Origin: a virus
Taxonomy: Duplodnaviria > Caudoviricetes
Virus record (IMG/VR): IMGVR_UViG_3300020461_000009
Coordinates: 1 to 52,363 of that record
Strand: one strand, 5' to 3'
DNA length: 52,363 nt
Part shown: positions 23,361 to 47,683 of the stretch, one piece after another
Layout of the letters: every line of letters begins with the position of its first letter
Position numbering within the stretch: the first letter of the stretch is position 1
Position numbers and translations under genes: made by a program
The notes under the pieces: generated by a model
Seen by the model: only the letters and a program-made list of their open reading frames with translations
The model's database searches: none
Told to the model about the DNA's origin: nothing

Positions 23361-23786
23361 ATGGAAAAAGAAAAAATAAAAAATATACCACAAAAAATTA
23401 AAGAAATAGACGATGATAAACCTGATTATCAGGAAAAAATCACGTTTTTAGTTTCTACAGTTGCACAAGGTTTTATATTAACTTGGTGTTTGCTTGTCTT
23501 GTCTTTAGGATATGTAAAGCTTCCTAATAAACTATTTGGTATGGACATACCAGACCAGCCAAGGGTTGACAGTACTTTTGCAGCAGGTCTTTTAGGTAAT
23601 ATTCTTGGAGGTCTAGGCATTTCTGTTAATGCTGCACAAGGTAATAAGAAGAAAAAGAAAGAAGAAGCAGAAAATGGTAATATTAGTAACTCTGCTGGTG
23701 GCGTACAAACTATAATAATAAAGCAGCCACTAGAAATCGTCACAACAAAACCTGACGTAATCAAAGTTGATCCCACAAAAAAATGA
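23361..23786 (+). CDS. Two-TM membrane protein (holin-like candidate)
   Basis: Two hydrophobic segments around DSTF, then a basic KKKKK tail. Confidence 0.6.
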   Translation: MEKEKIKNIPQKIKEIDDDKPDYQEKITFLVSTVAQGFILTWCLLVLSLGYVKLPNKLFGMDIPDQPRVDSTFAAGLLGNILGGLGISVNAAQGNKKKKKEEAENGNISNSAGGVQTIIIKQPLEIVTTKPDVIKVDPTKK

Positions 23787-24304
23787 AAAAACTACTTCCA
23801 TTTATTTTTGCAGTCGTAACTACTCCAACTTATGCCGAGATTACGGCTAAATATGTAACTTCAGCACAAATTTCCATAGATTCGCCTTATGTAATTACTA
23901 ATGCTGCACCATCAAGTTACAGTATTAGTGGAAGTAACATTACCACTTCTACAGGAACAGGAGATAGTGTTGTCACTAATGCAATTGGTGGATTGAATCT
24001 TGGAAGTTTTGGTAATACTGGTACGCCAAACGCAATACATACTAATAAGACAGTTACAAACGCTGGATCTGCTTTTTCTCTAAGCGAAAGTTATCAAGCT
24101 GGTGACGGGACACAAACTGCAATTACACCATCTAGCGGAATAGCAACTTTGCCTGTTCTTGGTGGACAAACTACAGTAATTTCTGGAGGTACTGCTGGAA
24201 ACTTAGCCTTAACCTCTGTATCATCAGGAATCCATACTTGTACGGCTGGTGGAAGTGGTACTAGCTGTATTGGATCTACTACTGTTAGTATAGAAATTGA
24301 CTAA
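23783..24304 (+). CDS. Secreted Ser/Thr/Gly-rich beta-strand protein
   Basis: Signal peptide MKKLLPFIFAVVTTPTYA; two Cys near the C terminus. Confidence 0.75.
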   Translation: MKKLLPFIFAVVTTPTYAEITAKYVTSAQISIDSPYVITNAAPSSYSISGSNITTSTGTGDSVVTNAIGGLNLGSFGNTGTPNAIHTNKTVTNAGSAFSLSESYQAGDGTQTAITPSSGIATLPVLGGQTTVISGGTAGNLALTSVSSGIHTCTAGGSGTSCIGSTTVSIEID

Positions 24305-24734
24305 ACTCTGGCTGCTGCTAGTATTTATATACCCGATCAAGGTTTTTGCTACCCCTGTAGTCCCTCAGTTCAGATCTGGGAGTTCTACGACTTCATCAAC
24401 TTCTGAATCTGTCATAAATGAAACTATAACCAGCTATCAGTATCGAACTGGTTATACATTTAGTGTTTCGGGTCACAATATAGAATCAACAGATATTAAT
24501 GGTTACATCAATCCAACACCTACAAGTGTTAATGAACAAACTGTTGGAGGAGTAAACTTTTCTTGGACTACTTTAGATGGCACAACAAATGCAAGGTGGA
24601 AGGTAGCAGTTCCCGGAAGTTCTTTCAGTTTAGTCGAAAGCGTGATGGCTCCCGGCCTCGATACAGTCACAAATATAACCCGGACTATAACTACGTCAAC
24701 TACCACAGAATCTACAAGTACGTTTGGGCAATAG
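24297..24734 (+). CDS. Secreted Thr/Ser-rich protein (PVVPxF motif)
   Basis: Signal peptide ending VFA; cyanophage-type conserved pattern. Confidence 0.75.
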   Translation: MTKLWLLLVFIYPIKVFATPVVPQFRSGSSTTSSTSESVINETITSYQYRTGYTFSVSGHNIESTDINGYINPTPTSVNEQTVGGVNFSWTTLDGTTNARWKVAVPGSSFSLVESVMAPGLDTVTNITRTITTSTTTESTSTFGQ

Positions 24735-25318
24735 CTGTAATTCTTTGCCCTGCAAGGGTTTTAGCGAATACAACAGTAGCGAGTCCACAAAGTCAATCGA
24801 CAGGGGTAGTAAATAATAATGCAACAATGATAACCCCTTCTAGTCATCCACAATTTAAAATGTCGCAAGGTATTATCTGCTCTTCTCCTAGCCTTACGTT
24901 TACACCCTATGTAACCGATGCTTGGTCATTTAACAGGCCAATAGAACAGGTGACGAGACAGAATATCTATGACGAAAATACTGGAGAAGTAAAATATGTG
25001 CAAGAAACTCCTCGCTTTGAAAAAGATAATTACAATTTAAACTATGGTTTTAGTCTTCAACTAAACATACCATTAGGAAAATCTCCAGCCCTTTGCCAAG
25101 AAGCGACTCAAGTAAATATAGATGCACAAAGATTACTAATAGCTAAAACACAAATGGAGATGGAATTATACAGACTTAAAATATGTGGTGAACAAGCTCG
25201 CCTCGGCGTACAGTTTGTTGGTAAGTATGCTATTAGTTGTGAAGGAATACAAGTTAACATACCTCCTAATCAAGTTCTGCCTCATGTACACAAAATTGAG
25301 GTAAAAGCACAAAAATAG
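24563..25318 (+). CDS. Secreted or outer-membrane-type protein with amphipathic beta strands and Cys-containing helical C terminus
   Basis: Signal-like segment ending RVLA (true start uncertain, downstream of 24563); YNLNYGFSLQLNIPL. Confidence 0.65.
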   Translation: MDYFRWHNKCKVEGSSSRKFFQFSRKRDGSRPRYSHKYNPDYNYVNYHRIYKYVWAIAVILCPARVLANTTVASPQSQSTGVVNNNATMITPSSHPQFKMSQGIICSSPSLTFTPYVTDAWSFNRPIEQVTRQNIYDENTGEVKYVQETPRFEKDNYNLNYGFSLQLNIPLGKSPALCQEATQVNIDAQRLLIAKTQMEMELYRLKICGEQARLGVQFVGKYAISCEGIQVNIPPNQVLPHVHKIEVKAQK

Positions 25319-25374
25319 CCCCTTCAGAATCGACTGTAAGGGGCTTGTAAAAAAGTCTGCTTATGTTTGTACCT
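25312..25374 (-). repeat. Inverted copy of the dispersed element; also a probable bidirectional terminator
   Basis: AGCCCCTT...AAGGGGCT stem between convergent genes; similar to 4736-4799. Confidence 0.6.
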
Positions 25375-26017
25375 ACGATTTTGGCTCTTTTTTCTTTGTC
25401 AGCTTTGTAAAGACTTGCTTTACTAAAGGTCGCACTAATTGTAAAACAAGCGGAGCAGAAGCACCAACCAGAGCCAAGCTAAACACCCCAACAAACTGAG
25501 GGGCAGAAGGTATGTACTGATCTTTGAAGGGTACGTCTTCATAAAGAGTAATGCACTCTTGTTTATTATCAGACAATTTATGACCTGTAACACGTTCAAG
25601 TTTTTTTTCGTTACGAAAATCACCTATTCGTTGGTCTTTTGAACTTGGACATTCTGGGATTACTATGTCATCTTTTTTTTCTTCCTCTGGTATTTTAGGG
25701 GTTTCAGTTTCTGGAATATTAGGTTCTAAATTATTTGTTGGTGGTGGCTCTTCTACAATTGTCATTTGGTTAGGGTTAAAAACAGGAGGTATAAAATTAG
25801 GAAAAGAAAAATCGCATATTGTATATACACCATTTGGGTCATCTAGTAATAAATTATGATTACCTGTGTTTTTTATATCTCGATGCTGATAAGTACAACC
25901 TGGTGTATTTATATTTAAATATTGTGTTAATACAGGAATATCTGGTGAATATGGCTCTGGAATGTATATTTCTGGAATATATATTTCTGGAACACTAATA
26001 TTAGGAATCTCCATCAT
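25373..26017 (-). CDS. Pro-rich, Cys-containing protein with C-terminal membrane anchor
   Basis: PEIYIPE repeats, PGC...C, C...C, C-terminal TM plus basic tail. Confidence 0.75.
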   Translation of the reverse strand: MMEIPNISVPEIYIPEIYIPEPYSPDIPVLTQYLNINTPGCTYQHRDIKNTGNHNLLLDDPNGVYTICDFSFPNFIPPVFNPNQMTIVEEPPPTNNLEPNIPETETPKIPEEEKKDDIVIPECPSSKDQRIGDFRNEKKLERVTGHKLSDNKQECITLYEDVPFKDQYIPSAPQFVGVFSLALVGASAPLVLQLVRPLVKQVFTKLTKKKEPKS

Positions 26018-26216
26018 CCCCAATAGAAATAGACCAACCTTTCTCTCCAAACTTGCCAACTTCTTTTATAACAGGTTTTCTTATTTTTTTATCTAATTCT
26101 TCGTGATATTTTTTTATATCATTATCAAGTTCTAAATTAAATTTTTGCATACGCATCCAATGAACTAATTTATCAATATAGTATTTAATTAATTTTTTTA
26201 TAAAACCAAATACCAT
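26001..26216 (-). CDS. Hypothetical protein
   Basis: 71-aa coupled ORF. Confidence 0.65.
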   Translation of the reverse strand: MVFGFIKKLIKYYIDKLVHWMRMQKFNLELDNDIKKYHEELDKKIRKPVIKEVGKFGEKGWSISIGDDGDS

Positions 26217-26725: not shown

Positions 26726-26939
26726 ATTTTTGTGCGTCAGAAGGTTTTAACTGTTCTTCTTGAGCTTTCGTAGATAATAATTGTGCCTGTGCATCTTTTA
26801 CACCAATAATTGCACCTTGATACCTATGTTCGTTTTGACACTCTAATTCATAAGACCTTTTTGCTTGTGCTTTACGATTTTGTATAGCAATAAGCTCCTG
26901 TTCGTATCTTTTTAAAAGATCATCTAGTGGATTGGTCAT
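26718..26939 (-). CDS. Small coiled-coil protein
   Basis: Start re-called at MTNPL (ATGA coupling). Confidence 0.7.
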   Translation of the reverse strand: MTNPLDDLLKRYEQELIAIQNRKAQAKRSYELECQNEHRYQGAIIGVKDAQAQLLSTKAQEEQLKPSDAQKSS

Positions 26940-27532
26940 GCTGCTACCTCCATTACTTGAATCCAAGAAGAAGTCCTAACATTATCACCACCATCTGCGT
27001 CATTATGATATTGATTTACATAAAGAGTTCTTGTTGATCCACTTATGTTGTATTGAGCTAGTCGGTATGTTAAAGCACTTGTACTGCCAGCAGTATCAAG
27101 ATAAGAAAAACTTTGAGGAACAATTGAATAAGTACCATGTTGACGAACAGCAGTCATAGCACCTTCTCTAGTGCCTACTATTGCACCATTTGCTGCTGTT
27201 ATTGAAGCAAAAGAACCAGACCCAGTTTGTTTTTGCAAAATAACTGGAATATTATTTACATCATTTGATGAAGTAAAATGTGTATTAGCTATAATTAAAA
27301 TTTTATTTGAGGCATTGCTTGGTGTGATAGTAACTTGAATATTATGTCCTGTCCAAAGTGCTTCTGAAGCTGTACTTTGTGAGGCAACATCATTTCTACC
27401 GCCCTGCACAACTTGAAGAATTTTACCAGCACCACCATTCGGAAAGGAACATTTACCAGCCGAATCTAAAGTAATAGCATCACTAGACGCTCCAGTATGC
27501 CTAATACTATTAACAATTAACCTACTGCTCAT
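26936..27532 (-). CDS. Tail fibre tip paralog, class C (module 2)
   Basis: MSSRLIVNSIR N terminus; GKILQV...MEVAA domain. Confidence 0.75.
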   Translation of the reverse strand: MSSRLIVNSIRHTGASSDAITLDSAGKCSFPNGGAGKILQVVQGGRNDVASQSTASEALWTGHNIQVTITPSNASNKILIIANTHFTSSNDVNNIPVILQKQTGSGSFASITAANGAIVGTREGAMTAVRQHGTYSIVPQSFSYLDTAGSTSALTYRLAQYNISGSTRTLYVNQYHNDADGGDNVRTSSWIQVMEVAA

Positions 27533-27870
27533 GGCTTGGGATACTTGTCTTTAGTAGCTTTAATTGCAGTAGCCCAAGTCCCTGTTGTATCTAACTTACC
27601 AGCAACCATATCTTTATAAAGCATATCTAACTGATCTCCTATCGTTGGATAGATAGTATCTGTTGTCCCTGCTGCACCTGTTCTCTGTGACTTATACAAA
27701 ATCGCTGCTGCTGCATCGTCTAACGATTTTCGGGCTGCTGCTATTTTTGTATCATCTAGTGTTACTTTTGATCCGTCAGCAGCAAACGCTCCAGCAGTAT
27801 CGTCTATAGAAACAACAGGTTTTGTTTCTGATTTGTAAGCCTCATAAATAGCTTCGTGGTCTAACGCCAT
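27529..27870 (-). CDS. Tail fibre assembly chaperone-like protein
   Basis: YP.IGDQLDML...W...IK..K.KYPKP motif. Confidence 0.65.
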   Translation of the reverse strand: MALDHEAIYEAYKSETKPVVSIDDTAGAFAADGSKVTLDDTKIAAARKSLDDAAAAILYKSQRTGAAGTTDTIYPTIGDQLDMLYKDMVAGKLDTTGTWATAIKATKDKYPKP

Positions 27871-27910
27871 AATTAAAAAGTCCTTTTTACTAAATTATAT
27901 AGGATGGACA

Positions 27911-28558
27911 TTAAGCTGCCACCTCCATGACTGTTATTGTTGATTGAGTTCTTATGTCATAAGCATAGTTATCATCTGAGTGAGAACGATTCAAATATAC
28001 AGTTTTTGTACCATTTGCACTATGACCCAATCTGACAGAATATGTTATTTGACTTGTCCCACCAGCAGTATCTAAATACTGACCACCAGTTGTATTATGA
28101 GTTCCTACCCATCTTACGTCCCCACCAGATGTTCTTGGTTTACGATTACCAGCAGCGGTTCCAGCAGCTCCAGTAAGTAATGAACCCGCTTTATAAAAAA
28201 CCCAATTCACTTCATTATCATTATTCAATCCCATACTGACATGAGCCGTAAGAAAAATCTTATTGTTTGCATTTGATGGTGTGATATTAACTGTTAGAGC
28301 ATCTGCACTAAGAGTTCCAGTAGCAAGACTTTCTGAAAAAGTATCAGTTCTTGTTGTTGAAACAACTTGTAAAATTTTACCTCCCCCAGCTTCAGCAAAT
28401 GATAAATTTCCAGAGCCATCCGTTTTTAAAAAAGTATCAGCACTCCCGTCAGACTGCGGTAGCTTTAGTTCAACTTCACTTGAAGAAGGGTTTGATGTTG
28501 GTACAGCTAATGAAACCGCATTACCACCAGAATGTACGAGTTTAATTTTTCCTGTCAT
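27911..28558 (-). CDS. Tail fibre tip paralog, class B (module 2)
   Basis: MTGKIKLVHSGGN N terminus; GKILQV...MEVAA. Confidence 0.75.
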   Translation of the reverse strand: MTGKIKLVHSGGNAVSLAVPTSNPSSSEVELKLPQSDGSADTFLKTDGSGNLSFAEAGGGKILQVVSTTRTDTFSESLATGTLSADALTVNITPSNANNKIFLTAHVSMGLNNDNEVNWVFYKAGSLLTGAAGTAAGNRKPRTSGGDVRWVGTHNTTGGQYLDTAGGTSQITYSVRLGHSANGTKTVYLNRSHSDDNYAYDIRTQSTITVMEVAA

Positions 28559-29163
28559 GCTGATACCTCCATTGCTGTGATAGATGATACTCCATGAAAC
28601 CAATTATTATCCCAAGTTCTATTAAGATACATTGTTCCAGAGTGCATATGCCATTTAATACCATATGTAATCGCACTTGTTGTATTTGGAGAATCTAAAA
28701 ACTCGAAATTGGCTGTTAAGTATAAAGATGAACCACCTATAGCAAAAGTGCCGTCTGCATCATCATCTACAACACTTGCATTACCTATTTCAGTTGTAGT
28801 CCCACCTATTGTTCTCTTTAGTCTAAAGTTTCCTTCAGCACCTGTGTAAGCCAAGTACAAACTACCTTTATATAAAATTTTATTACTTGTTGCGGATGGT
28901 GTAATACTAACAGTTAGTCCTGATATATCTGAAAAACTACCCGAGCTAGTACTTGCAGTATCATTTTTAAAAGTTTGTTTTACTTGTAAAATTTTACCTC
29001 CAACACCACTTGCTAATTTTGCAGCAGTAATCGCACCACTTGCTATTTTTCCACTTGCTACAGAGTTTGCTGCAAGCATATCTGCATCTACTATTCCATC
29101 AGGCAACCCACCAACTGCAAGTCCTGTTATTACTCCTGTGTTTCCGTTGATTGATACTGGCAT
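28555..29163 (-). CDS. Tail fibre tip paralog, class A (module 2)
   Basis: MPVSINGNTGVI N terminus; GKILQV...MEVSA. Confidence 0.75.
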   Translation of the reverse strand: MPVSINGNTGVITGLAVGGLPDGIVDADMLAANSVASGKIASGAITAAKLASGVGGKILQVKQTFKNDTASTSSGSFSDISGLTVSITPSATSNKILYKGSLYLAYTGAEGNFRLKRTIGGTTTEIGNASVVDDDADGTFAIGGSSLYLTANFEFLDSPNTTSAITYGIKWHMHSGTMYLNRTWDNNWFHGVSSITAMEVSA

Positions 29164-29459
29164 TAGACTACTGTGAACACCGATCCAGAAGGTATAGTTA
29201 AAGTATAAGACCCCATTGAAAAAGGGCCAGCTACCATACCATTTTTATTTGTACCAACTGTAATATTTCCTGCTGCTGCTATTGGGTTTTGAAATATGGA
29301 ATCTGTCTCACCACCAGCAGATATTGCATTGGTAGATGCAGCAGTTATTCTTCCCTGGGCATCAACTGTAATAGCTGGTATTGCAGTAGCAGAACCATAA
29401 CTTCCTGCACTTACAGAAGTATCAGCTAATCCTTGAGCTTGTGCTTTAGTTAATCCCAT
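29163..29459 (-). CDS. Short fibre adapter-like protein (module 2)
   Basis: AGSYG...ITVDAQGRITAA fibre repeat; C-terminal TIPSGSVFTVV matches the end of 31202-33253. Confidence 0.65.
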   Translation of the reverse strand: MGLTKAQAQGLADTSVSAGSYGSATAIPAITVDAQGRITAASTNAISAGGETDSIFQNPIAAAGNITVGTNKNGMVAGPFSMGSYTLTIPSGSVFTVV

Positions 29460-30037
29460 TATCCTGCCACCTCCAAAAGAGTGAGAGATGAAGGTACTCT
29501 TCCTCTTGATACATCAGTTGAACCTTGTTCATCTCTTCCAATATAACTCGTAAATCCACCAGAATAACCTTGTTTCCATTGTATTTTATATGTATGTGAA
29601 CCAGCACCACTTGGAATATCTAAAGCACTAAAGGAAGCAGTACTTGCTCCGTAGTTATAATAACCAGTATATCCACCAGCACTTGCACGAGTTACACTAC
29701 CATCTGCATCACCGAGCCAAGGATAATTTGTACTTCCGTCTACATCTACTCTTACTAATCTAAACCAAGTGCTATATGCAGCAGATGATCCAAAAAAGAC
29801 ATTTCCTAAACAAAGAACTTTACTACCAGCAGAAGTAGTTATTGCTTGTGATAAACCAGTCACATCTACAAAAGTAGCAGATTGTGTAGATTGTGTGTCT
29901 GTTTTAGCTACTTGAACAACTTGAAGAATTTTACCAACACCGCCATTTGGAAAGGCTGGTTTGCCAGAGTTATCAAATGTTATCGCATCTGCTGAAGCAG
30001 AAGTGGATCGTATTGCGTTTGTTATTAACCTACTCAT
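29459..30037 (-). CDS. Tail fibre tip paralog, class C (module 1)
   Basis: MSRLITNAIR N terminus; GKILQV...LEVAG. Confidence 0.75.
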   Translation of the reverse strand: MSRLITNAIRSTSASADAITFDNSGKPAFPNGGVGKILQVVQVAKTDTQSTQSATFVDVTGLSQAITTSAGSKVLCLGNVFFGSSAAYSTWFRLVRVDVDGSTNYPWLGDADGSVTRASAGGYTGYYNYGASTASFSALDIPSGAGSHTYKIQWKQGYSGGFTSYIGRDEQGSTDVSRGRVPSSLTLLEVAG

Positions 30038-30639
30038 GCTGCCACCTCCATAGCTGTTATTGTTGAAACACAATTTGTCATGTAAGTGTAATTATCTAAC
30101 GTTGGAGAACTATTAATACCAATAATGTAACTAGAAGAATACGGACTATGTGCTTGTAATTTATAAGTTGTTGCAGACGTTGTATTTGGAGAATCTAAAA
30201 GCTCTTGAGTTACACTCCTTCCATCAACATAAGATGACATATAACTACCAAAAGAACCTCTATTTTGACTTGTAGCACTTGGGTTTTGATCTCCTATAAA
30301 AATTGTGCTATCACTACCTCTTAGTAAACGCATAGACCAATATTGATTATTTGTAAAAGCACTAACACAATATCTAATTAGAACTTTATTAGAAGATGAG
30401 CTAGGTGTAATAGTAACACTCATACCTGCAATATCAACTAAAGTTGTCGATTGTATAGTTGTTCTATCTTTTTTAACTGTTTGTATAACTTGCAAAATTT
30501 TACCTGCATTTGCAGTTGTAGCTATTGTTCCATCTGCATCACCAGGTAATGTAAGAGTTCTGTCTGCTGCTGGATTAGAACTTGGTGCAGCTAATATAAC
30601 TCCATTACCACCACTATGTAATAATTTAATCTGACTCAT
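30034..30639 (-). CDS. Tail fibre tip paralog, class B (module 1)
   Basis: MSQIKLLHSGGN N terminus; GKILQV...MEVAA. Confidence 0.75.
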   Translation of the reverse strand: MSQIKLLHSGGNGVILAAPSSNPAADRTLTLPGDADGTIATTANAGKILQVIQTVKKDRTTIQSTTLVDIAGMSVTITPSSSSNKVLIRYCVSAFTNNQYWSMRLLRGSDSTIFIGDQNPSATSQNRGSFGSYMSSYVDGRSVTQELLDSPNTTSATTYKLQAHSPYSSSYIIGINSSPTLDNYTYMTNCVSTITAMEVAA

Positions 30640-31190
30640 GCTGCTACCTCCATAACTGTAATTTGACTAATAGGATTCTGACCTGATGAACTACTAGGGT
30701 TAGAGTTAGCTGTATTCACACCATAAACATTCCCACCACCATTATGTGTAGTAATTTGTATTTTATATGTTGTAGCACTTGTTGTTGATGGGGAGTCTAA
30801 AAATGTTCCAGTATTTTGATAAGATGGCACAGAACCAACTTGGTCATTTCGAGTGTATATAAAATTACTACATCTTGTTCGAGAACTTGCATCATCACCT
30901 CGATAAATGTCTGTAGATCCTCTCATCAAATGAAGAAAAGCTCTATAACCACCATTAGGCCCACCAACATTGACGTTATAAACAATTAAGATTTTATTTG
31001 ATGAAGATGAAGGAGTTATAGCAACACTTAAACCAGTTATATCGTATCTATCACCACCACTACTAGAAGAAGTAAAAGTTTGAGAATCACTTTTAAGTGC
31101 TTGTACTACTTGCAGAATTTTACCTGTAGATATACCTGATAAACTTGAGGCTGATATAACTCCAGTAGATCCGTTTAATACTATTGGCAT
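30636..31190 (-). CDS. Tail fibre tip paralog, class A (module 1)
   Basis: MPIVLNGSTGVI N terminus; GKILQV...MEVAA. Confidence 0.75.
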   Translation of the reverse strand: MPIVLNGSTGVISASSLSGISTGKILQVVQALKSDSQTFTSSSSGGDRYDITGLSVAITPSSSSNKILIVYNVNVGGPNGGYRAFLHLMRGSTDIYRGDDASSRTRCSNFIYTRNDQVGSVPSYQNTGTFLDSPSTTSATTYKIQITTHNGGGNVYGVNTANSNPSSSSGQNPISQITVMEVAA

Positions 31191-31201
31191 AATTTTACCT
31201 C

Positions 31202-33253
31202 CTAGACAATAACATAACGTGAACCTGACGGAATGGTAACTGTTACCCCACTTGCTACTATTATATCTCCTGCACTTATACCTGACTTGTTTGTGGTCAT
31301 AGTATAATTATTTGAAATTGTTAACGAGTTTTCTGTAACGCAACCATCAGCTTTTTGTGATGAAACTCCAGTTAATGCTGACCCATCAATAGCTGGCAAC
31401 GCTCCAGTAAGTGCGGAAGAAGGTAAATTAGTTAAACTTGCACCTGACCCACTAAATGTAGTTGCTGTTAATAATCCTGTAGAAGAGTTAAATGTAAGAT
31501 TTGATCCTGACTTTAAGCCTAAATCTCCTGTAGCTGCGGTGGTAAACAGAGGAAAACAAGTAGTATCAGAACTTTCATCAGCAATCGTAGAGGTAGTCGC
31601 ATTGCCAACAGCAACTTGAGTTCCCATATTAATGATGAAATATGTAGATCCACTAGGAGGAGCAGAATCAAAAATTATATCTGTACCACTTACAACATAT
31701 CCATCTGTCATATCCCCTTGACCAGACCCATCATTGGGTTGCTGCATAACACCATTGATAGATACTCTTAATATCTCTGCATTAACTGGTGTTACTGCTG
31801 TACTTGTGCCTTTCGTGACTAGCTTAAATCTATAAGCAGATCCGTTGAATGTAGCTGATCCACCACCAGTTCCAGAAGATGATGCAATATCTAATAAATC
31901 TGCTGTTCCCGAAGTAGCTGCTGATCCACCAATCTCTCCCCAAGCACTACCATCATATCCTTCAAATTCTGATGTCTGACTATTGAATCTGAACATCCCG
32001 GCAGATGGAGAGCCGGGTCTTTGTGCTGTAGTTCCAGCAGCAACATCAATCGCACCTGTTCCTGTCATTGAAATATCACCACTTACACTAAAGTTTCCAC
32101 TAACAGTAAGACTAGAAAGTAAAGTTCCTGTAGCTGTAGCTGAGTTTGTCTGAACAGCATTACCCATCAATGAGTGACTTGAGCATTGATAATGGATAAC
32201 CATTGGAGTGTTATCTGCTATGACAATCTGCACATATGCACCACTTTGACCTGCTGTTCCATTTACAGTTACGTTTGTTGTATAAGCTGTAGTTTTATTT
32301 GACTCAAGATAAAAACGTAAAGGATGACCAGAATTACTTGAATGTGATTGGTCAAACTTATAAGTACGGCCAGGTGTAAGAGTTAAAAATGGTGCTTCTT
32401 TGCCATCAATTAAATAACCATTTCCAGACCCACTTCCGTTATATCTATGCGCTGCTGTTTTGCTTGCAACAGTAACAGTTAGAGTTTTTACAGATCCAGT
32501 ATATGTAGCCTGAGTAGAAGCAAATCCTCTAATGTTTCCATCATCGGTGAGAGTTAACGTACCAGTAAAATTAGGATCTGCATTTTGACCAGGTGCTACC
32601 CAACTAAGAACTCCAGAAGCGTTACTTGATAAAACATATCCACTTACAGAAGAGTCAGCAGAAGGTAAAGTCCAAACAACATTAGATGAAACTGTTGCAG
32701 CAGATTTAAAACCAACATAATGAGAAGAGTCAGCATCTAAATATCTAACCTCTTTTTGACCAGAAACAGATAGATGTTCACTACTTGTCCAAGAGTCTGT
32801 TGCATTTACCCAATTAAATGTTTTATCAGACGCACCTTTTAGAGTAAGTCCACCTCCGTCAGCAGTTGTATCAGATGGTGTTGAGACTTTTCCAAGAGTT
32901 ATATTTTTATCCTCTACATCAAGATTGGTAGTGTTGATTGTAGTTGTTGTACCCCCAACTGTTAAGTCTCCTACTATATTTACAAGACCAGCAGAACTGA
33001 TAGACATTCTGCCTGTTCCACCTGTGCTAAAGGTTAAAGTATCTGATCCTCCACTAATTCCTGTATTTGGATCAGAATTAAAACTAAATGCAGGGCTACC
33101 AGCAGATCCATCAGGTGCTTTACTTAATAAATTTGAATAACTTATCTTTTTATTTTTAGCAGAACCTGTGGCACTTTGATCTATTATCGGCAAAGTATCT
33201 GTACTGGCTGGTGCAGTAAGTTCTGTAAATTCTGATATTTTGCGGTTTGTCAT
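31202..33253 (-). CDS. Long tail fibre protein with internal cupredoxin-like domain
   Basis: KISE N terminus, Gly/Ser/Thr-rich fibre motifs, GHPL...YQCSSHSLMG, GTTAQRP...FEGY repeat, C-terminal TIPSGSRYVIV. Confidence 0.8.
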   Translation of the reverse strand: MTNRKISEFTELTAPASTDTLPIIDQSATGSAKNKKISYSNLLSKAPDGSAGSPAFSFNSDPNTGISGGSDTLTFSTGGTGRMSISSAGLVNIVGDLTVGGTTTTINTTNLDVEDKNITLGKVSTPSDTTADGGGLTLKGASDKTFNWVNATDSWTSSEHLSVSGQKEVRYLDADSSHYVGFKSAATVSSNVVWTLPSADSSVSGYVLSSNASGVLSWVAPGQNADPNFTGTLTLTDDGNIRGFASTQATYTGSVKTLTVTVASKTAAHRYNGSGSGNGYLIDGKEAPFLTLTPGRTYKFDQSHSSNSGHPLRFYLESNKTTAYTTNVTVNGTAGQSGAYVQIVIADNTPMVIHYQCSSHSLMGNAVQTNSATATGTLLSSLTVSGNFSVSGDISMTGTGAIDVAAGTTAQRPGSPSAGMFRFNSQTSEFEGYDGSAWGEIGGSAATSGTADLLDIASSSGTGGGSATFNGSAYRFKLVTKGTSTAVTPVNAEILRVSINGVMQQPNDGSGQGDMTDGYVVSGTDIIFDSAPPSGSTYFIINMGTQVAVGNATTSTIADESSDTTCFPLFTTAATGDLGLKSGSNLTFNSSTGLLTATTFSGSGASLTNLPSSALTGALPAIDGSALTGVSSQKADGCVTENSLTISNNYTMTTNKSGISAGDIIVASGVTVTIPSGSRYVIV

Positions 33254-33255
33254 AA

Positions 33256-34221
33256 TTAAAACTTGATTATGTACATAAGAGCTACGTTTTTAACACGAAC
33301 CTCAGTCCCACCACCACTACTTGCAATTGTGTGTGAGTGAGTTGCATCCATACTAAAGCTACCGCATTGTGCTTCTCCTCCAGCATTACCATACAATCTT
33401 GCGTTTCTATTTCCTCCTTTAGTAAAGACTCCACTTGCTGAACCATCCATTCTATAAGATTGTGATATTGCTTGAACATCACCAGTAAGAGATGTGGAAT
33501 CAGTTGTGTGCGTATGATTCTTGTTTTGATCTGTTTGTGTCGAACCAAAAACTCTACTTGCATCTACTCCAGCACTATTATCCCAACCTCTAACAAACTG
33601 ACCTCTTAAGTCAGGTAGGTTGAAGGTAGAAGATCCATCCCCTGTTCCATGTGTTGTTGATAAAATTGAAAATAATGAAGCATATGTAGATCTACTAATA
33701 GCACTACCATTACATTCTAAAAACCCAGAAGGAGGAGTAGAAGCTCCAAAAGTTAATATAGTTCCTACTGGAATACCTGATGCTAAACCACCCCAAGCTG
33801 ATCCGTTATAACCCTCAAAACTCGTTGTTGTACTATTGAATCTTATTTGGCCTGTAGCTGCTGTTGGTCTTTGAGCGGTTGTACCACTCGGCAATTTTAA
33901 TGCACCTGTACCACCCATCACTATGTCACCAGCAGAATCTACTGTACCTGTGAAATCTGGAGATGCTTTTGTTGCTAATCCGAAATTATTAGTATGTGCA
34001 GCATCTGTAAGACTTCCTAAAACCAACCAGCCATTATTTGCAGAGTTTCTTATTTTAAGTAAATTTGTTGAGGTATCAGCCCAAATTTTATAAGCAACAG
34101 TTGTAGTGGGATCTGATGATCCACTATTTAAAGATTGTATATCTCCTAAAACAGCATTAAGCTCAGTTCTAAAAGTAGAACCAACTTGATTAGCTAAATT
34201 ATAATCTGCTGTATTACTCAC
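33256..34221 (-). CDS. Tail fibre protein with phage tail collar domain
   Basis: PVGTI...GFLECNGSAISRSTYASLF...FNLPDLRGQFVRG. Confidence 0.85.
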   Translation of the reverse strand: MSNTADYNLANQVGSTFRTELNAVLGDIQSLNSGSSDPTTTVAYKIWADTSTNLLKIRNSANNGWLVLGSLTDAAHTNNFGLATKASPDFTGTVDSAGDIVMGGTGALKLPSGTTAQRPTAATGQIRFNSTTTSFEGYNGSAWGGLASGIPVGTILTFGASTPPSGFLECNGSAISRSTYASLFSILSTTHGTGDGSSTFNLPDLRGQFVRGWDNSAGVDASRVFGSTQTDQNKNHTHTTDSTSLTGDVQAISQSYRMDGSASGVFTKGGNRNARLYGNAGGEAQCGSFSMDATHSHTIASSGGGTEVRVKNVALMYIIKF

Positions 34222-37200
34222 TAAGTAACCTCCTTACCAAATCCTGATGCAGCCCATACAAATGATCTTGCGACTGCTGAACTTCCATTTTTGAAAGTGA
34301 CTTGAAAACCTGTCCTACTTATATTAGCAAGTTCATGGAAATCTCCAGATTGTTGATTGATTGGAGTCACTACTACAGTTGGTGTTTGCTTAAATGGATT
34401 TGTAAAAGAAACAGTATATTGAGAAGATCCAGTTGTTACTGGAGTCGAGATACTTTCTGTTCTTCCTTGTAATTCTAGTGTAGCTCCTAATTTAGTAACA
34501 GCTATATTTTGGTTTGTGTCATTACTTGTTAATAATGCTTTAAATTGAAATGCTCTTCCTGTAATTAAAACATTACTAAATTCTTTATAGTCACTCCAAG
34601 TTGGCGATCCTGATGGGTTATCATTAGTTGCTCTTACATAGACAGCAGCATTACATTTTGTGGCTTCAGTTAATCCACCAACTTGATCTATATATCCCCA
34701 ACTATCAATTAAATCTGTTCTATCATCCCATAAGTTATTTAAATTAAAACTAGAAGCTTCTAATACTTTCCTAATGTTTACATCATATGGCTGTGTTAAA
34801 TCTATTGAATTGTTGAATACATATTCACCAGAAGTTGAAACTGCATTACTGCTTTCTGTAAGCTTTAAAGCATCTAATGAAGCATCATATATAGTATTAG
34901 TTTTTGATCCTTGAAAGTTAGGTGTGTGTTCATCTATTGAGCCTACTGCAAGTCTTTCTGATGGTGCTGGAAGATTAGTTGTAACTCTAGTATTATTCCA
35001 AGCTGAATCTTGTGAACCAGGAGAAGGACTTTCTCGACCACCATCATCCTCAAACTTAATTAGATAAGTTCCAGCAAGTAAAGGCACGATTTTTTGTGTT
35101 TGGTTTCCAGCAGCAGCTACAACAATATTTTGCCCATCTTTCCATTGCGCTCCTGTTGTTTTACTAGAATGTCTGATAAGGGTTTTTCCTCCTAGCAACA
35201 CGTCAAGTTCTGTAGCTCGATTCCAACTTAGTATTGCACTTGTCTCATCAATCGGTAAAAGACTTACACCACTAACATTTTGTGGAGGTGCAGTTTTACC
35301 ATTAGCCACAAAGAAATTACCATTACCTGTAACAAGTTTTGCTGACTGTACAGATCTTAATCCTGATGGACTTACACTAAAAACTTCTATTTCATAATTA
35401 CCAGCAATAGTATCTAAAATCTCATAACTTTTTGAGTTTTCAACTGTCCTAGAAGTGTAATTACCATTCTGCAATCTAAAACGAATATAGTGTGTATCAG
35501 ATGTGCTAGTCCAACTTACAATAATTTTAGTTCTTGCAATGCCAGTATTCTCATAAATAACCTCCTCGCCTGTGATTCCTGTTGGTGATGCTGGTGGTAT
35601 GTCTAAATTGGTGACATCTCTTACAGGTAAAGCTATGCCACTTTCTATGTGATTGTATTTACCAGAGTTATATTCACTAGCAGTTACTGAATAAAAAGAT
35701 CTATCTTTTTCCTCTACTGATAATACTCTCCAAGTGCTTGTAGCTATTCCTGTCCCACTACTAAAAGTTTGATATACCCAAATACTATTTGGATTTGGCG
35801 CAGCAGAAAAATGTTGACCTAAACTAAATACATTGTTTGACAGCCCAGCAACTGTTTTTGTTTCAACAGTACCATCAGGTAATACACAACTTAATGTAGA
35901 GTTTGGCTCAAAAGTTAAATTTACATCTGATCCGCTTACTGTTTTTGCAAATATAGTATCTACTGTCACAGAGTTAGTTGTTGCAGATGTTATACGACCT
36001 GCTCTTCTTTCTCCAGACCTCATTGGATCTGCAATTTCTATGATTTGACCAGGCCTTACAACAACTCCAGCCTCTATACCACAGCTAAAAGTTACAATCT
36101 CACGTTCTACGTTGCTCATATATAGCATCCATTTCGCTAAACGAGAAGCCTGTCCTCTTGATGTGCAGGCGAAACTGTCAATATTTTTAATTACTGAGCC
36201 GTACCTTGCTTGGTTTGCAGTATCAATCTGCTCAACATAATTTATATCTCTAAGTTCTAAATCTAAATATTTTGCAATTACAACTGTAGGTCTTGTTTTT
36301 TGGCTTGCATTTGAATAGCTAAAACCTGGTTCTAATACATTTGACAATGAAAATAAATAACTTGAGTCCTTTGGTGCGTCTTGTGTAATTGTTAATGATC
36401 CAGCACTCCAAAATGGCATTGATCTAAATACAGAACACATTTGATTTACTACGTTATATGCTTCGCTTTGACTATTTATACAGACATTACAACTAAATCT
36501 TGGTTCTGTATTACCTGTACCTGTTCCATCATCGACTTGTTGTGAGCAATAAACAGAAGCTTGATAAAAACTAAATTTATCAAGATCAGACTCAGATAAG
36601 TGTGAACCTAATCCATACCTCTCAGAACTTAAAAGATCATATAAGCACCAGGCTGGATCATTTGTAAATTGTGCTGCGCCAAGAGTTCCATTAAATGTTC
36701 CAGTATATTCCAAGCTCCCATCAGCACGAACAGTTGCATTATGTGGGATTTTTACTTTTATACCATTTACTAAGTATTTTCTTGATGGTATTGATGAGAA
36801 TTGCTCTGCATCTACTTTTAAACCAACTAAAGCACTATTTGGATAGCTTCTTTTGTCGTATTTTATTTCTACATAATTATTAAATTGAAAAGCATCAACT
36901 AATTTACTTGATGAACTATTTGCAGTTATTCTTGTCACCTTAATATTGACAGGAAAAGCACCACTTAAATTAATCAAATAGTCTCTTACATAAGCATCAG
37001 GAGTTCTACCTGCAATAGTGCCATCATTACCAGAAACAACTGTTTGATAACCTCCTCCGCTATATTGAACAGCTATTTGTAATTCTATAGATGTACCAAA
37101 TATATCTCCCTCATCACTAAACTTTTGTAGTTGTGGAACTGTTATTTGTATAGAAACTGCATCAACATCTGAGTCGGTAATTTGTATAACTTTAGGAGAA

Positions 37201-37523
37201 CCTTGTTCTACTAGAGAAAAACCACTTGCTTTTGTTGTTGCAACATCTCTTGTAATTGGTATTACTGTTTGGCTTGATGTACCAGTTCTAACTTCAAAAG
37301 TAACATCTTTAAAATTAAAAGACCCATCAGCAGCTTGAAGAGGTGTGTTATTCAGAAATATAGATTTTCCTCCATCAACAAGTCCTCCGATTTCACCCTC
37401 ACCTATTAAATCAAGAACTCTTGCAAATGCTTTTGAATCGAGATTATCTTTGGCTTCATGTGGACTACCACCGCCACCGCCACCGCCTTTTCCACCGCCA
37501 CCGCCAGAACCAATAATCTTCAT
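34221..37523 (-). CDS. gpJ: Tail tip / host specificity protein (lambda J-like)
   Basis: DLIGEGEIGG, YPNSALVG, NDPAWCLYD, EPRFSCN motifs; follows L-K-I. Confidence 0.9.
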   Translation of the reverse strand: MKIIGSGGGGGKGGGGGGGSPHEAKDNLDSKAFARVLDLIGEGEIGGLVDGGKSIFLNNTPLQAADGSFNFKDVTFEVRTGTSSQTVIPITRDVATTKASGFSLVEQGSPKVIQITDSDVDAVSIQITVPQLQKFSDEGDIFGTSIELQIAVQYSGGGYQTVVSGNDGTIAGRTPDAYVRDYLINLSGAFPVNIKVTRITANSSSSKLVDAFQFNNYVEIKYDKRSYPNSALVGLKVDAEQFSSIPSRKYLVNGIKVKIPHNATVRADGSLEYTGTFNGTLGAAQFTNDPAWCLYDLLSSERYGLGSHLSESDLDKFSFYQASVYCSQQVDDGTGTGNTEPRFSCNVCINSQSEAYNVVNQMCSVFRSMPFWSAGSLTITQDAPKDSSYLFSLSNVLEPGFSYSNASQKTRPTVVIAKYLDLELRDINYVEQIDTANQARYGSVIKNIDSFACTSRGQASRLAKWMLYMSNVEREIVTFSCGIEAGVVVRPGQIIEIADPMRSGERRAGRITSATTNSVTVDTIFAKTVSGSDVNLTFEPNSTLSCVLPDGTVETKTVAGLSNNVFSLGQHFSAAPNPNSIWVYQTFSSGTGIATSTWRVLSVEEKDRSFYSVTASEYNSGKYNHIESGIALPVRDVTNLDIPPASPTGITGEEVIYENTGIARTKIIVSWTSTSDTHYIRFRLQNGNYTSRTVENSKSYEILDTIAGNYEIEVFSVSPSGLRSVQSAKLVTGNGNFFVANGKTAPPQNVSGVSLLPIDETSAILSWNRATELDVLLGGKTLIRHSSKTTGAQWKDGQNIVVAAAGNQTQKIVPLLAGTYLIKFEDDGGRESPSPGSQDSAWNNTRVTTNLPAPSERLAVGSIDEHTPNFQGSKTNTIYDASLDALKLTESSNAVSTSGEYVFNNSIDLTQPYDVNIRKVLEASSFNLNNLWDDRTDLIDSWGYIDQVGGLTEATKCNAAVYVRATNDNPSGSPTWSDYKEFSNVLITGRAFQFKALLTSNDTNQNIAVTKLGATLELQGRTESISTPVTTGSSQYTVSFTNPFKQTPTVVVTPINQQSGDFHELANISRTGFQVTFKNGSSAVARSFVWAASGFGKEVT

Positions 37524-45202: not shown

Positions 45203-47683
45203 TTATGTTCCGAAAGAGAACGCAGTTGGTTGCTTAACAGCAAAGTCAACATCCTGTAACGCTATTATTCTTACGCTACCGCTTGTTGCGTTTGCATATG
45301 GATCTACTGTTAGATCTAAACCAGACCACATACCAATCACAAACTGCGAGAAGTCTCCAAAGAGTACATCATTGTTTGCAAGTTGGTTAGAAACAATAGC
45401 TGGATAACCATTAATTTCGTTGTTCTCAAACACGAACTGTCCTGTGTTTGTAGCCTTTTCTGTTGACTTCAAAGCACCTCTAGCAGAAGCGTTAATTAGG
45501 TAGTACATATTAGCTACATCAGCATTTGCTGCGGCAACGTCTGTCTCAAGTGCTATGTACTCAGCAAAAGTACCGAATGTAGTAATTGTTGATGTACCTA
45601 CACCAGTTGTATCTTTGATACCTAATGGCTCATTAGAACTACCAGATCCATAGATAGCTGCGTTATCTAATTTAGTAGCAATAACCTTTGCAATGTCATC
45701 TCTAATCATTGTCTCAACGTCTATAGATGACTGAAGAAGTAATCTTCTTGAGTAGTCAACAAAAGCACCAATTGTCTTTGGTGTCATGTTCACTTGGTCA
45801 AAAGCTTGCTGACTTTCTGTTGGTGCGCCTGACTCACCTACAAAGTAAGCAGTTGATGTAGATGTCATTCTTGGGATAGACACGTTACCAGACAATCCTG
45901 TAAGCATTGTTGGGTTTGTTGCCATCACAGCCATTCTCTTTCTAAGAATGTCAATAAATGAACCTGCTAATAATTCTGTTGGAACTAAGTTACCACCAGC
46001 AGTTGCAGTACCCACGTTCAAGTCTCTTTGTAAAACTTCGTTAGGAACTAAAATTCCATTTGCAGGTTTCTCATACTTCTTAGAAGCTGCGTCAGAAACC
46101 TCTCTCTCAAAAGCTGCTGCTTCTTGAGCTTGACGATCTGTTGGGTTTGCTAATGCGTTTAATGCTCTTAAGAAAGAGAAACGCTTAATTTCTTTTTGGT
46201 CTAAGCCAACTTCATTAGTACTCATGTCAGTAGAACGTATTGGTGTATTAACTGCCTCTGCCTTGTTTTTAACAAGATCGAGGATAGCTGCTTTAGCTTC
46301 TGCTGGTGACTTATTAGATTTAATAAGTGAGTCAGTAAGCTCTTCTGCTCCATACTTTCCAAACTCACGACATAATGAAGTGATTGCTGCTGTACGAGCA
46401 TTATTTTCATCAATAGCACGTTGAACTTCGGCTTTGATGTCGATCTCAACGGATTTCTCCGCTTCAACCGCAGTTTCTTTAGTTGATTCTTCCATAGTGC
46501 GAACCGAGGGTGATGCGGATTCTTCCGCAGAAATAATCTCCTGTTGAGGTGATTTATCTTCCATAGTAATACTATTGCCTTGTGAGGGTGAGATCAAGCT
46601 TCTGCCGAAGCCTATTGTTGGATCTGCCGGGACTGTTACGACAGACAATTCATGGACAGACCATGATCTTGCAAGCATACCATCAGAAGTCTCATCCATA
46701 TCATTTATAGAATACCCAAAGCTAATACCTCTTAATATTCCATCTTTTACATCCTCTAAAATCTCAGATGCAAACTTACTTCTTGAGAAACGTATTTTTG
46801 CATAACCTCTTTTATCTTCTCCAATATATGCACTCTCAACCACACCTATAGGCTTATCCATATTGTGATTAAAGAGAACTGCACCGCCATCATTTAGCCT
46901 GCTAAGATCAGCAGCACCATCTTCATGGCTTAATACTTCGTTACCAAAATATCTTTTTACTGGATATTCAGAACTAAAAGGAAACTCAAATGTGCGTGAT
47001 TTCACATTTTTAAAGTCCGTAACCTCTTTACGTTCAAATCTATCTCCAGCATCAACACTTCTAATCGCTGCAATTTTTGTAAGTGTCGAAAATTTATGGC
47101 CGACCTTTCTATCGGTAGCCTCCCCATTTCGATACAACGTAATTAATGCAGCAGGGTCATCTGCTGTTCCAGTAATAGTAAAAGAACTATCAGGTACATC
47201 TATTGATCCATCTCTAACGATACGATCAATTTTACCCCTAGCCGTACCACCGCTAGAGTTCCATCTAACAAAATCACCAACCTTTAACCCATCAGGTTCG
47301 GCTCTGTGTTCTGTTTTAGTTTCTTCAGTCATAGTGCGTTCTCTTGCTTTTTTGATTGAATTAGATTTAGCCCTAGCCCAAGTCTGGCCGGGGTCACCTC
47401 CCCAGGCAGCCCAAGCTACCCTTCCGTTACTAGGATAGCCAGGTTCCCCTGGTCGGTATCCCTCGCCTGATTTATCCGACTCATGCCGAGCAAACCATGC
47501 GTTCATTGTAATCACAGTATCAGGTGATAGCTCATTTCCGCTTAATATTTGTGTTGCTCTTGTTCTTGCGTCATCAGTTCCACCACCTTCTCCTTCTTTT
47601 TTCCATTTTCTATATTTTTCTGCTTCCTTTCTCATACCATCAGTAGGCATAAGATTTATCTCTGTTCCATTAACATTCGCCAT
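45203..47683 (-). CDS. Prohead protease-major capsid fusion (HK97 fold) with two extra N-terminal domains
   Basis: LFNHN, GISFGY, ELSVVTVPAD (S78 protease); GGNLVPTE, FGDFSQ (MCP). Confidence 0.9.
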   Translation of the reverse strand: MANVNGTEINLMPTDGMRKEAEKYRKWKKEGEGGGTDDARTRATQILSGNELSPDTVITMNAWFARHESDKSGEGYRPGEPGYPSNGRVAWAAWGGDPGQTWARAKSNSIKKARERTMTEETKTEHRAEPDGLKVGDFVRWNSSGGTARGKIDRIVRDGSIDVPDSSFTITGTADDPAALITLYRNGEATDRKVGHKFSTLTKIAAIRSVDAGDRFERKEVTDFKNVKSRTFEFPFSSEYPVKRYFGNEVLSHEDGAADLSRLNDGGAVLFNHNMDKPIGVVESAYIGEDKRGYAKIRFSRSKFASEILEDVKDGILRGISFGYSINDMDETSDGMLARSWSVHELSVVTVPADPTIGFGRSLISPSQGNSITMEDKSPQQEIISAEESASPSVRTMEESTKETAVEAEKSVEIDIKAEVQRAIDENNARTAAITSLCREFGKYGAEELTDSLIKSNKSPAEAKAAILDLVKNKAEAVNTPIRSTDMSTNEVGLDQKEIKRFSFLRALNALANPTDRQAQEAAAFEREVSDAASKKYEKPANGILVPNEVLQRDLNVGTATAGGNLVPTELLAGSFIDILRKRMAVMATNPTMLTGLSGNVSIPRMTSTSTAYFVGESGAPTESQQAFDQVNMTPKTIGAFVDYSRRLLLQSSIDVETMIRDDIAKVIATKLDNAAIYGSGSSNEPLGIKDTTGVGTSTITTFGTFAEYIALETDVAAANADVANMYYLINASARGALKSTEKATNTGQFVFENNEINGYPAIVSNQLANNDVLFGDFSQFVIGMWSGLDLTVDPYANATSGSVRIIALQDVDFAVKQPTAFSFGT

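Follow-up and report, generated by a model that had tools for sequence, protein, structure and literature searches.

The window analysed here, the whole 52,363-base stretch of the complete IMG/VR virus record IMGVR_UViG_3300020461_000009 (CheckV, 100%), carries a tail-fibre gene followed by two trios of small paralogous genes, a 98-amino-acid (aa) adapter gene and a 113-aa companion gene. We propose that this locus is a modular extension of one tail fibre by multiple receptor-binding proteins (RBPs), in which the small proteins would be separate mini-fibres, docked through N-terminal anchors and tipped with heads that move as cassettes; we put the probability of this reading at roughly 0.6. 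Separate mini-fibres are more likely than one mixed tip made of three chains. What we document directly is the gene grammar of such loci, the fold of the heads, which a model predicts to be tumour necrosis factor (TNF)-like, and the exchange of heads between anchors. An earlier note on this DNA had described a duplicated receptor-binding module, which stands; our alignment and the open frames likewise bear out its six paralogs, which share a domain and fall into three N-terminal classes in the same order twice.

Gene order, anchors and knobs

The genes of the locus are all open frames on the minus strand, in the order 683-aa fibre, A1, B1, C1, 98-aa adapter, A2, B2, 113-aa gene, C2:

31202-33253, minus strand: 683-aa tail fibre, an open reading frame (ORF) ending TIPSGSRYVIV
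30636-31190, minus strand: A1, A-class anchor MPIVLNGSTGVIS in a 23-aa N-terminal part, then a TNF-like head
30034-30639, minus strand: B1, B-class anchor beginning MSQIKLLHSGGNG (46 aa), then a TNF-like head
29459-30037, minus strand: C1 (ATG at 30037), starts MSRLITNAIRS, C-class anchor MSRLITNAIRSTSASADAITFDNSGK (35 aa), then a TNF-like head
29163-29459, minus strand: 98-aa adapter, E-class N-terminus (MGLTK...), short shaft motif and second knob copy, ending TIPSGSVFTVV
28555-29163, minus strand: A2, A-class anchor MPVSINGNTGVIT in a 56-aa N-terminal part with a GLPDG.../KIASGAITAAKLASG motif, then a TNF-like head
27911-28558, minus strand: B2 (start placed at the ATG at 28558), B-class anchor MTGKIKLVHSGGN in a 60-aa N-terminal part, then a TNF-like head
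27529-27870, minus strand: 113-aa companion protein, phrog_9114 (E 1e-22), between B2 and C2
26936-27532, minus strand: C2, starts MSSRLIVNSIRH, C-class anchor MSSRLIVNSIRHTGASSDAITLDSAGK (36 aa), then a TNF-like head

Downstream of the fibre there are seven junctions, and at six of them the frames overlap by ATGA or TAATG; the junction between B2 and the 113-aa gene, a spacer of ~40 nucleotides, is the only one without overlap. The A-B-C order does occur twice, as the earlier note had it, but the second trio is not uninterrupted: the 113-aa gene, which the note missed, lies between B2 and C2.

An alignment of the six paralogs spans ~160 residues, and their common C-terminal domain runs from GKILQV to MEVAA. 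Positions invariant in all six are GKILQV, I58, T59, S61, K66, G91, L131, D132, T141, Y142, S175, E181 and V182. GKILQV was thus rightly listed as part of the shared motif, but NKI, listed with it, is not invariant, C1 having GS-KVL. Identity to A1 is 28-44%, and the six paralogs are each other's only matches in the record (E 8e-10 to 2e-22 against A1); given these E-values and the six-way alignment, the resemblance is not due to chance.

The C-terminal ~46 aa of the fibre (ENSLTISNNYTMTTNKSGISAGDIIVASGVTVTIPSGSRYVIV) form a conserved 'knob' in an alignment of 35 sequences. The fibre as a whole matches the PHROG tail-fibre families phrog_30742 and phrog_34255, residues 599-683 corresponding to the profile end. 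Against Pfam it matched no family and gave one sub-threshold hit only, a T4 gp10-like branching domain not being among the Pfam findings, and the best E-value of the knob profile against PDB sequences was 0.58. Because the entire adapter can be aligned with the last 98 aa of the fibre, residues 586-683 (31% identity, E 2e-6), we consider it a free-standing copy of the fibre end. S-TIP37, a candidate reached through the N-terminal motif of the adapter, was set aside, since it has neither the knob nor the anchor system.

To place the window among its relatives we used a census of 80 IMG/VR loci, the window, P-SSP7 and Lederberg. The 80 loci, given below as L numbers, are those most like the window, the best of at least 535 confirmed loci from at least 600 matches in a pattern scan of IMG/VR. 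Heads, knobs and companion proteins were annotated with local hidden Markov models (HMMs) and N-termini with regular expressions. In addition to A, B and C we distinguish class D, a C-like variant (MATLNATNLKH in P-SSP7), and class E, which starts MGLTK or MALTK and consists mostly of adapters. In dereplicated pairs, the neighbours of each class were as follows:

Following a gene with a knob end: 59 A, 1 B and 8 without class, of 68
Preceding A: a gene with a knob in 59 of 63
Preceding B: A in 54 of 77; 'other' in 15, for the most part small ORFs that come after an A gene whose head is of a different type
Preceding C: the companion gene in 25 and B in 7, of 33
Preceding D: B in 14 of 16
Preceding an E-class gene: C or D in 17 of 21

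Anchor classes A, B, C/D and E are kept across loci while heads vary, and the adapter recurs (in the forms ad98 and ad106), a C or D gene preceding it in the same 17 of 21 cases. Two proposals of the earlier note can be judged here. Its observation that each trio sits behind a gene ending TIPSGS extends to the relatives, in which a knob-type end precedes an A-class gene in the 59 of 68 pairs listed. Conservation of A-B-C order, which it offered as a check, is also found: with C and D merged, 29 of the 49 closed dereplicated modules read ABC, 4 read AB and 6 are empty, and AC, ABCC (P-SSP7), ABC?, ABB, ACC, BB, B, ?, ??C and ?BC occur once each. P-SSP7 has the order A, B, D, companion gene, C; its fibre gp17, ending TIGTGENWTIV, is followed by gene 37 (A, MPITLNGSG), gene 38 (B, MSQLKLTADSGGG), gene 39 (D, MATLNATNLKH), gene 40 and gene 41 (C, MSRIIVDAIRN). 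A core protein like gp16 of P-SSP7 lies upstream in 15 loci and a protein like J of phage lambda in 18, so the system serves both podoviruses and siphoviruses. The same head domain also occurs among related loci in fused forms of 230-595 aa. In Pelagibacter phage Lederberg (L002), positions 1-2452 hold a run of four head genes, whose N-termini are B-like, C-like and E-like (MALTR), and then a homolog of the companion gene; the first of the four spans the record origin.

We regard the 113-aa protein as a candidate fibre-assembly chaperone, and probably not a tip subunit. It is 50% identical to PSSP7_040, the product of P-SSP7 gene 40 (E 4e-31), and its homologs follow head genes even where one long fibre bears the head (595-aa, 538-aa and 271-aa forms). 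The homolog in L079 has PF16778 (Phage_tail_APC) in its C-terminal half (E 8e-15), and the C-terminal half of the window protein aligns with that motif. The window protein itself matched no Pfam family, PF16778 included; among 44 members of the family, PF16778 was found in one (that of L079) and weak XkdW matches in two (best E 7e-5). Its AlphaFold2 model is confident (predicted local distance difference test, pLDDT, 91), but a Foldseek search of the PDB gave no match at E <=0.001, and the best Z in a VIA-align comparison with 48,161 chains was 3.6. Some heads of other types have a small downstream gene of their own; that of L083, with 84 aa, belongs to PF16778 (Phage_tail_APC; E 2e-15).

Head fold, receptor binding and exchange between anchors

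The A1 head is predicted to be a TNF-like or C1q-like jelly roll, with two sheets that can be superposed on those of TNF-like lectins. Its AlphaFold2 model, a jelly roll with pLDDT 88.1 and a predicted template modelling (TM) score, pTM, of 0.83, has 39 Foldseek matches in the PDB at E <=0.001, led by the C-terminal domain of Chlamydia Pgp3, PLTL and the N-terminal domain of BC2L-C. The top matches have probability 1.0, and for PLTL the TM-scores are 0.55 and 0.72 and the root-mean-square deviation is 3.4. BC2L-C, PLTL and Pgp3 are all known as homotrimers, and the lectins bind sugars between subunits. At the level of sequence profiles, five of the six paralogs match approximately positions 522-707 of the 708 in phrog_6942 (E 6e-11 to 4e-19; A1 at 528-707), and A2 matches only phrog_29834 of the two head PHROGs. 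A head profile built from 150 relatives matches residues 495-656 of the 658-residue fibre orf22 of phage LME-1 (E 5e-36); the PDB entry, 9EFK, contains this fibre as 18 chains. In BFVD, the A1 model has hundreds of uncharacterised viral look-alikes, which are either proteins of ~160-190 aa or the ends of proteins of 385-780 aa. Cedratvirus collagen-like proteins in BFVD have a similar head fold after collagen repeats (E ~1e-7), an architecture in giant viruses that resembles C1q.

The conserved motifs GKILQV, ITPS..SNKIL, TYK and MEVAA sit on strands of the A1 model. Resistance-breaking mutants of P-SSP7 carry SGTW130-133R in gene 37 and M126I, R127S/H, Y163H or SS165-6FRF in gene 38 (PMC5520035, Table 2). 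These residues map to inter-strand loops of the head model. It is this genetic evidence, obtained by others, that leads us to see the heads as the receptor-binding parts; they would bind the host surface, where their ligand is probably a glycan.

By sequence comparison, the lineage of a head is almost independent of the N-terminal class to which it is joined. The C2 head is 87% identical over 175 aa to an A-class protein of L009, the B1 head 84% over 177 aa to an A-class protein of L039, and the C1 head 91% over 158 aa to a B-class protein of L014, in an alignment that begins at GKILQV; the A2 head is 86% identical to a D-class head of L010. Heads that are at least 90% identical are on the same class in 7 of 15 pairs, and those that are 80-90% identical in 24 of 43, with a chance expectation of 0.34 in both cases. 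Similarly, a FastTree tree of 151 dereplicated heads has 60 class changes, compared with 69-74 in the five shuffles listed. The earlier note had suggested that heads are swappable, and near-identical heads on different anchor classes agree with this. Since heads move as cassettes, host range could change with the docking parts left untouched.

The heads of L010, a T7-like contig, are 82-86% identical to those of window proteins A1 and A2, and are shared by contigs with a core protein and fibre of the P-SSP7 type. That T7-like contigs and a lambda-like siphovirus have heads in common suggests a common host pool, possibly Prochlorococcus.

The anchors are also found on heads of other kinds. A-, B- and C-class N-termini are joined to heads of 143-390 aa that the head HMM does not see, and 9 of the 41 closed modules with at least two members pair a TNF-like head with HMM-unrecognised heads of other lengths. 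L080 and L083, for example, have a 199-aa non-TNF A protein, TNF-like B and C proteins, an adapter, a TNF-like A protein, and 234-aa and 332-aa non-TNF B and C proteins. The 347-aa A-anchored protein of L026 scored 21.6 bits for Peptidase_S74, just below the 22-bit cut-off. Anchors of classes A and C are even fused directly to a knob, in 72-aa proteins of L079, L081 and L082 and a 90-aa protein of L037. All six heads of the window are TNF-like. A second family of small heads, ~130-170 aa long, has the motif AWVNFNGTGT..IRDS.N(V/I)SS(I/V)TDNGTGDYT (L079, 5218-6839; also L081, L082, L053, L049 and L056); an ORF of its own often comes next, with a MSKIIYTN-like start and 81-143 aa, and these heads stand in for TNF-like heads behind the same knobs.

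Models of assembly

We propose that each small gene would encode a mini-fibre of its own, made of an N-terminal docking peptide, an optional shaft-like stretch and a ~160-aa TNF-like head. Each mini-fibre is probably homotrimeric, as are its structural relatives and the resolved part of the LME-1 fibre. The A-class protein would dock on the ~46-aa knob of the 683-aa fibre, and B, then C or its variant D, would be added in a fixed hierarchy, either on the knob or on the neck of the preceding protein. The E-anchored adapter would supply a second knob, at which A2, B2 and C2 repeat the series, and the companion protein may serve as the assembly chaperone. Recombination at the GKILQV start and the MEVAA end of the head domain would move heads between anchor classes, and between podoviruses and siphoviruses. 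In a complex prediction with three copies each of the last 100 aa of the fibre and of A1, every chain having its own alignment, a run made without controls scored 0.20, the mark being 0.32.

Several considerations weigh against this model. There is no physical evidence for docking, stoichiometry or virion incorporation of any member. For P-SSP7, the authors themselves call direct evidence for a structural role lacking (PMC5520035), and the distal part of the P-SSP7 fibre is not resolved by cryo-EM. Modules most often have three members, by a wide margin (29 of 49), as a three-chain tip would also predict, and the strand motifs of the predicted fold, if they form the trimer interface, could permit mixed trimers. 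The subtype of the knob co-varies across loci with that of the A anchor, which would fit docking but is confounded by linkage. The conserved order as a whole could be inherited synteny that homologous recombination at conserved flanks maintains, and not an order of assembly. The census took the first methionine as the start of each gene, which is crude, and used anchor classes of our own definition. Lastly, the anchors contain motifs that look like shaft motifs by eye; a BLAST comparison of B2 with the 683-aa fibre, made for such likeness, gave nothing significant.

Another possibility is that the paralogs compete for one site on the knob, such that each fibre or virion has one of them and the population is a bet-hedging mixture. 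Heads that behave as interchangeable cassettes, a number of paralogs per fibre that varies, and P-SSP7 host-range mutations that fall in more than one paralog speak for such alternative tips. However, a single site predicts a single type of N-terminus, whereas there are four or five sharply distinct conserved classes in nested order: in 59 of 68 cases it is A that adjoins the knob, a place hardly ever taken by B or C. Moreover, the adapter would have no purpose if all the paralogs shared one knob. We consider competition for one site unlikely.

We give still less credence to the assembly that the earlier note favoured, in which A, B and C chains form a 1:1:1 heterotrimeric TNF-like head nucleated by the TIPSGS end, giving the tips A1B1C1 and A2B2C2 and possibly three different inter-subunit binding grooves. 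TNF-like folds are trimeric, C1q is a known heterotrimer within the superfamily, and a universal interface could be provided by the strand motifs that all heads retain. ABC trios do dominate (29 of 49 closed modules), with a fixed order of anchor classes and overlapping genes. Furthermore, three consecutive small tail proteins of the virophage DSLV2 are reported to be heterotrimeric, from AlphaFold 3 modelling and co-purification (PMC12724248). Nonetheless, the heads here do not cluster by position, unlike the DSLV2 proteins, and heads that are nearly identical are found on anchors of class A, B or C, next to different neighbours. Nor do the members of a module always share a fold, given the 9 of 41 modules that mix TNF-like and other heads, as in L080 and L083. 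AB (four cases), AC, ABB and ABCC modules exist, and the knob-fused A and C anchors have no partner chains of other classes, the knob being an end of homotrimeric-type fibres. Length (23-60 aa) and motif vary among the three N-terminal parts, and the LME-1 fibre, which consists of six trimers, terminates in this head too. Taken together, the position-blind heads, the mixed modules, the module sizes other than three and the knob-fused anchors argue against a 1:1:1 heterotrimer as a rule; we keep it on our list, as an improbable arrangement, because trios dominate and the strand motifs might be a universal interface. It is similarly doubtful that, in all-TNF trios such as those of the window, the anchors gather one A, one B and one C chain, with conserved inner strands that would permit a mixed trimer. 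If this were the case, each tip would have three distinct inter-subunit sugar grooves, and a single head swap would create two new specificities.

Least likely is that the small proteins are assembly factors, decoys or soluble lectins and not parts of the virion, since, although small genes downstream of fibres often encode chaperones and proteomic evidence of virion incorporation is lacking, the same domain forms the C-terminal ~160 aa of long fibres (phrog_6942, the fused 230-595-aa forms and LME-1 orf22), a separate chaperone-like gene is already there, and mutations in P-SSP7 genes 37 and 38 alter which hosts are infected. A chaperone role for the paralogs themselves was rejected on the first of these grounds.

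These findings bear on how P-SSP7-type cyanophages and their relatives recognise Prochlorococcus and other abundant marine bacteria; genes 37 and 38 have had no prior structural explanation. A grammar of knob, A-B-C/D-E anchors, adapter, exchangeable TNF-like heads and companion gene would give these host-range genes a testable architecture. Movement of heads between T7-like podoviruses and lambda-like siphoviruses would explain why the region is a metagenomic island. The GKILQV and MEVAA boundaries mark natural junctions of head exchange, and could be of use when head repertoires are compared with host strains in metagenomes.

The window genome and known systems

From its gene content, the window virus, a marine phage, is a lambda-like siphovirus. 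Profile scans identified a gpA-type terminase, a lambda-family portal, a fused protease-capsid gene, a tube protein, a tape-measure protein and a J-like central fibre. The J-like gene and a collar-domain fibre lie directly upstream of the 683-aa fibre (33256..37523, minus strand):

34221-37523, minus strand: lambda-J-like central fibre, PF24801 and PF13550, phrog_31 ('central tail fiber J')
33256-34221, minus strand: 321-aa collar-domain fibre, PF07484 (Collar)

The large terminase subunit, TerL, is at most 45% identical to that of any cultured phage, and for this reason the host cannot be named. A DNA-level search of the module region against cultured phages found short patches only, with coverage of at most 5%. 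Three other regions of the window are worth describing. A single 826-aa ORF at 45203-47683 (minus strand) combines Hva1_TUDOR, prohead protease (Peptidase_S78) and HK97-type major capsid domains. The 228-aa protein encoded at 25373-26059 (minus strand), ~0.9 kb downstream of the module, is proline-rich, contains PEIYIPE repeats and has a hydrophobic segment at its C-terminus; it matched no Pfam family, and it resembles the product of P-SSP7 gene 42 by eye, but with a BLAST E-value of 0.59. At 23783-25318, three ORFs of 173, 145 and 251 aa, the third overlapping the second, lie on the plus strand, opposite to the structural genes. Two of the three have signal-peptide-like hydrophobic N-termini and are Ser/Thr-rich, and those of 173 and 251 aa matched no Pfam family.

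The closest known system is that of P-SSP7, whose genes 37-39 were described as three paralogs that form a cassette downstream of tail-fibre gene 36 (Schwartz and Lindell 2017, PMC5520035). Both the three-paralog cassette and its role in host range are already published (PMC5520035). Among the matches listed in a literature search from 2017 on, judged by titles and abstract openings, only that paper bears on the cassette. In the papers covered, we found no description of the knob, the ordered anchor classes, the free adapter or the TNF-like fold of these heads, nor of head exchange between anchor classes and between podoviruses and siphoviruses. The P-SSP7 proteins are true homologs of those in the window, with the same layout and the same type of knob. 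By contrast, P-SSP7 is a T7-like podovirus with one four-member module and no adapter, whereas the window virus, a lambda-like siphovirus, has two trios and an adapter.

The Legionella phage LME-1 has the same head family at the C-terminus of orf22 (9EFK), in a fibre of six trimers (PMC12407071), but there the head is covalently part of a single 658-aa chain. The distal fibre was left unmodelled according to that paper, such that the oligomeric state of the head was not actually seen (PMC12407071). The N-terminal domain of BC2L-C, PLTL and the C-terminal domain of Chlamydia Pgp3 are the best structural matches, yet their sequence identity is 10-18%, and trimerisation and sugar binding in the phage proteins would be extrapolated from them. 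In virophage DSLV2, three consecutive small tail-protein genes also have a conserved positional order, and the authors relate the proteins to Synechococcus phage fibres (PMC12724248). Compared by description, the DSLV2 proteins have a collar domain and are gp37-tip-like, and their clustering by position extends to the full protein (PMC12724248); here only the N-termini cluster in this way. A TNF-like domain in a cyanophage fibre with a separate chaperone is already known from the myocyanophage Pam3, in which the fibre gp24 is homotrimeric and is followed downstream by a two-domain chaperone, gp25; gp24 differs in having a glycine-rich tip and a helical shaft (PMC9608196). No match in sequence or fold was found between the Pam3 system and the 113-aa companion protein of the window.

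Fibres with multiple RBPs and N-terminal docking peptides are known in other phages. The anchor-and-branch systems of Klebsiella podoviruses, CBA120 and G7C place several RBPs on one attachment point, through short conserved N-terminal docking peptides, and their receptor-binding parts are swapped as modules; the long tail fibre of T4 is the end-to-end case. The paralogs of the window and its relatives likewise carry a short conserved N-terminal peptide, which is predicted from sequence to be a docking peptide. Two differences set the window apart from these systems: its platform would be a knob of ~46 aa that is also issued as a free 98-aa adapter, and its four or five ordered anchor classes carry small TNF-like heads, not depolymerase spikes.

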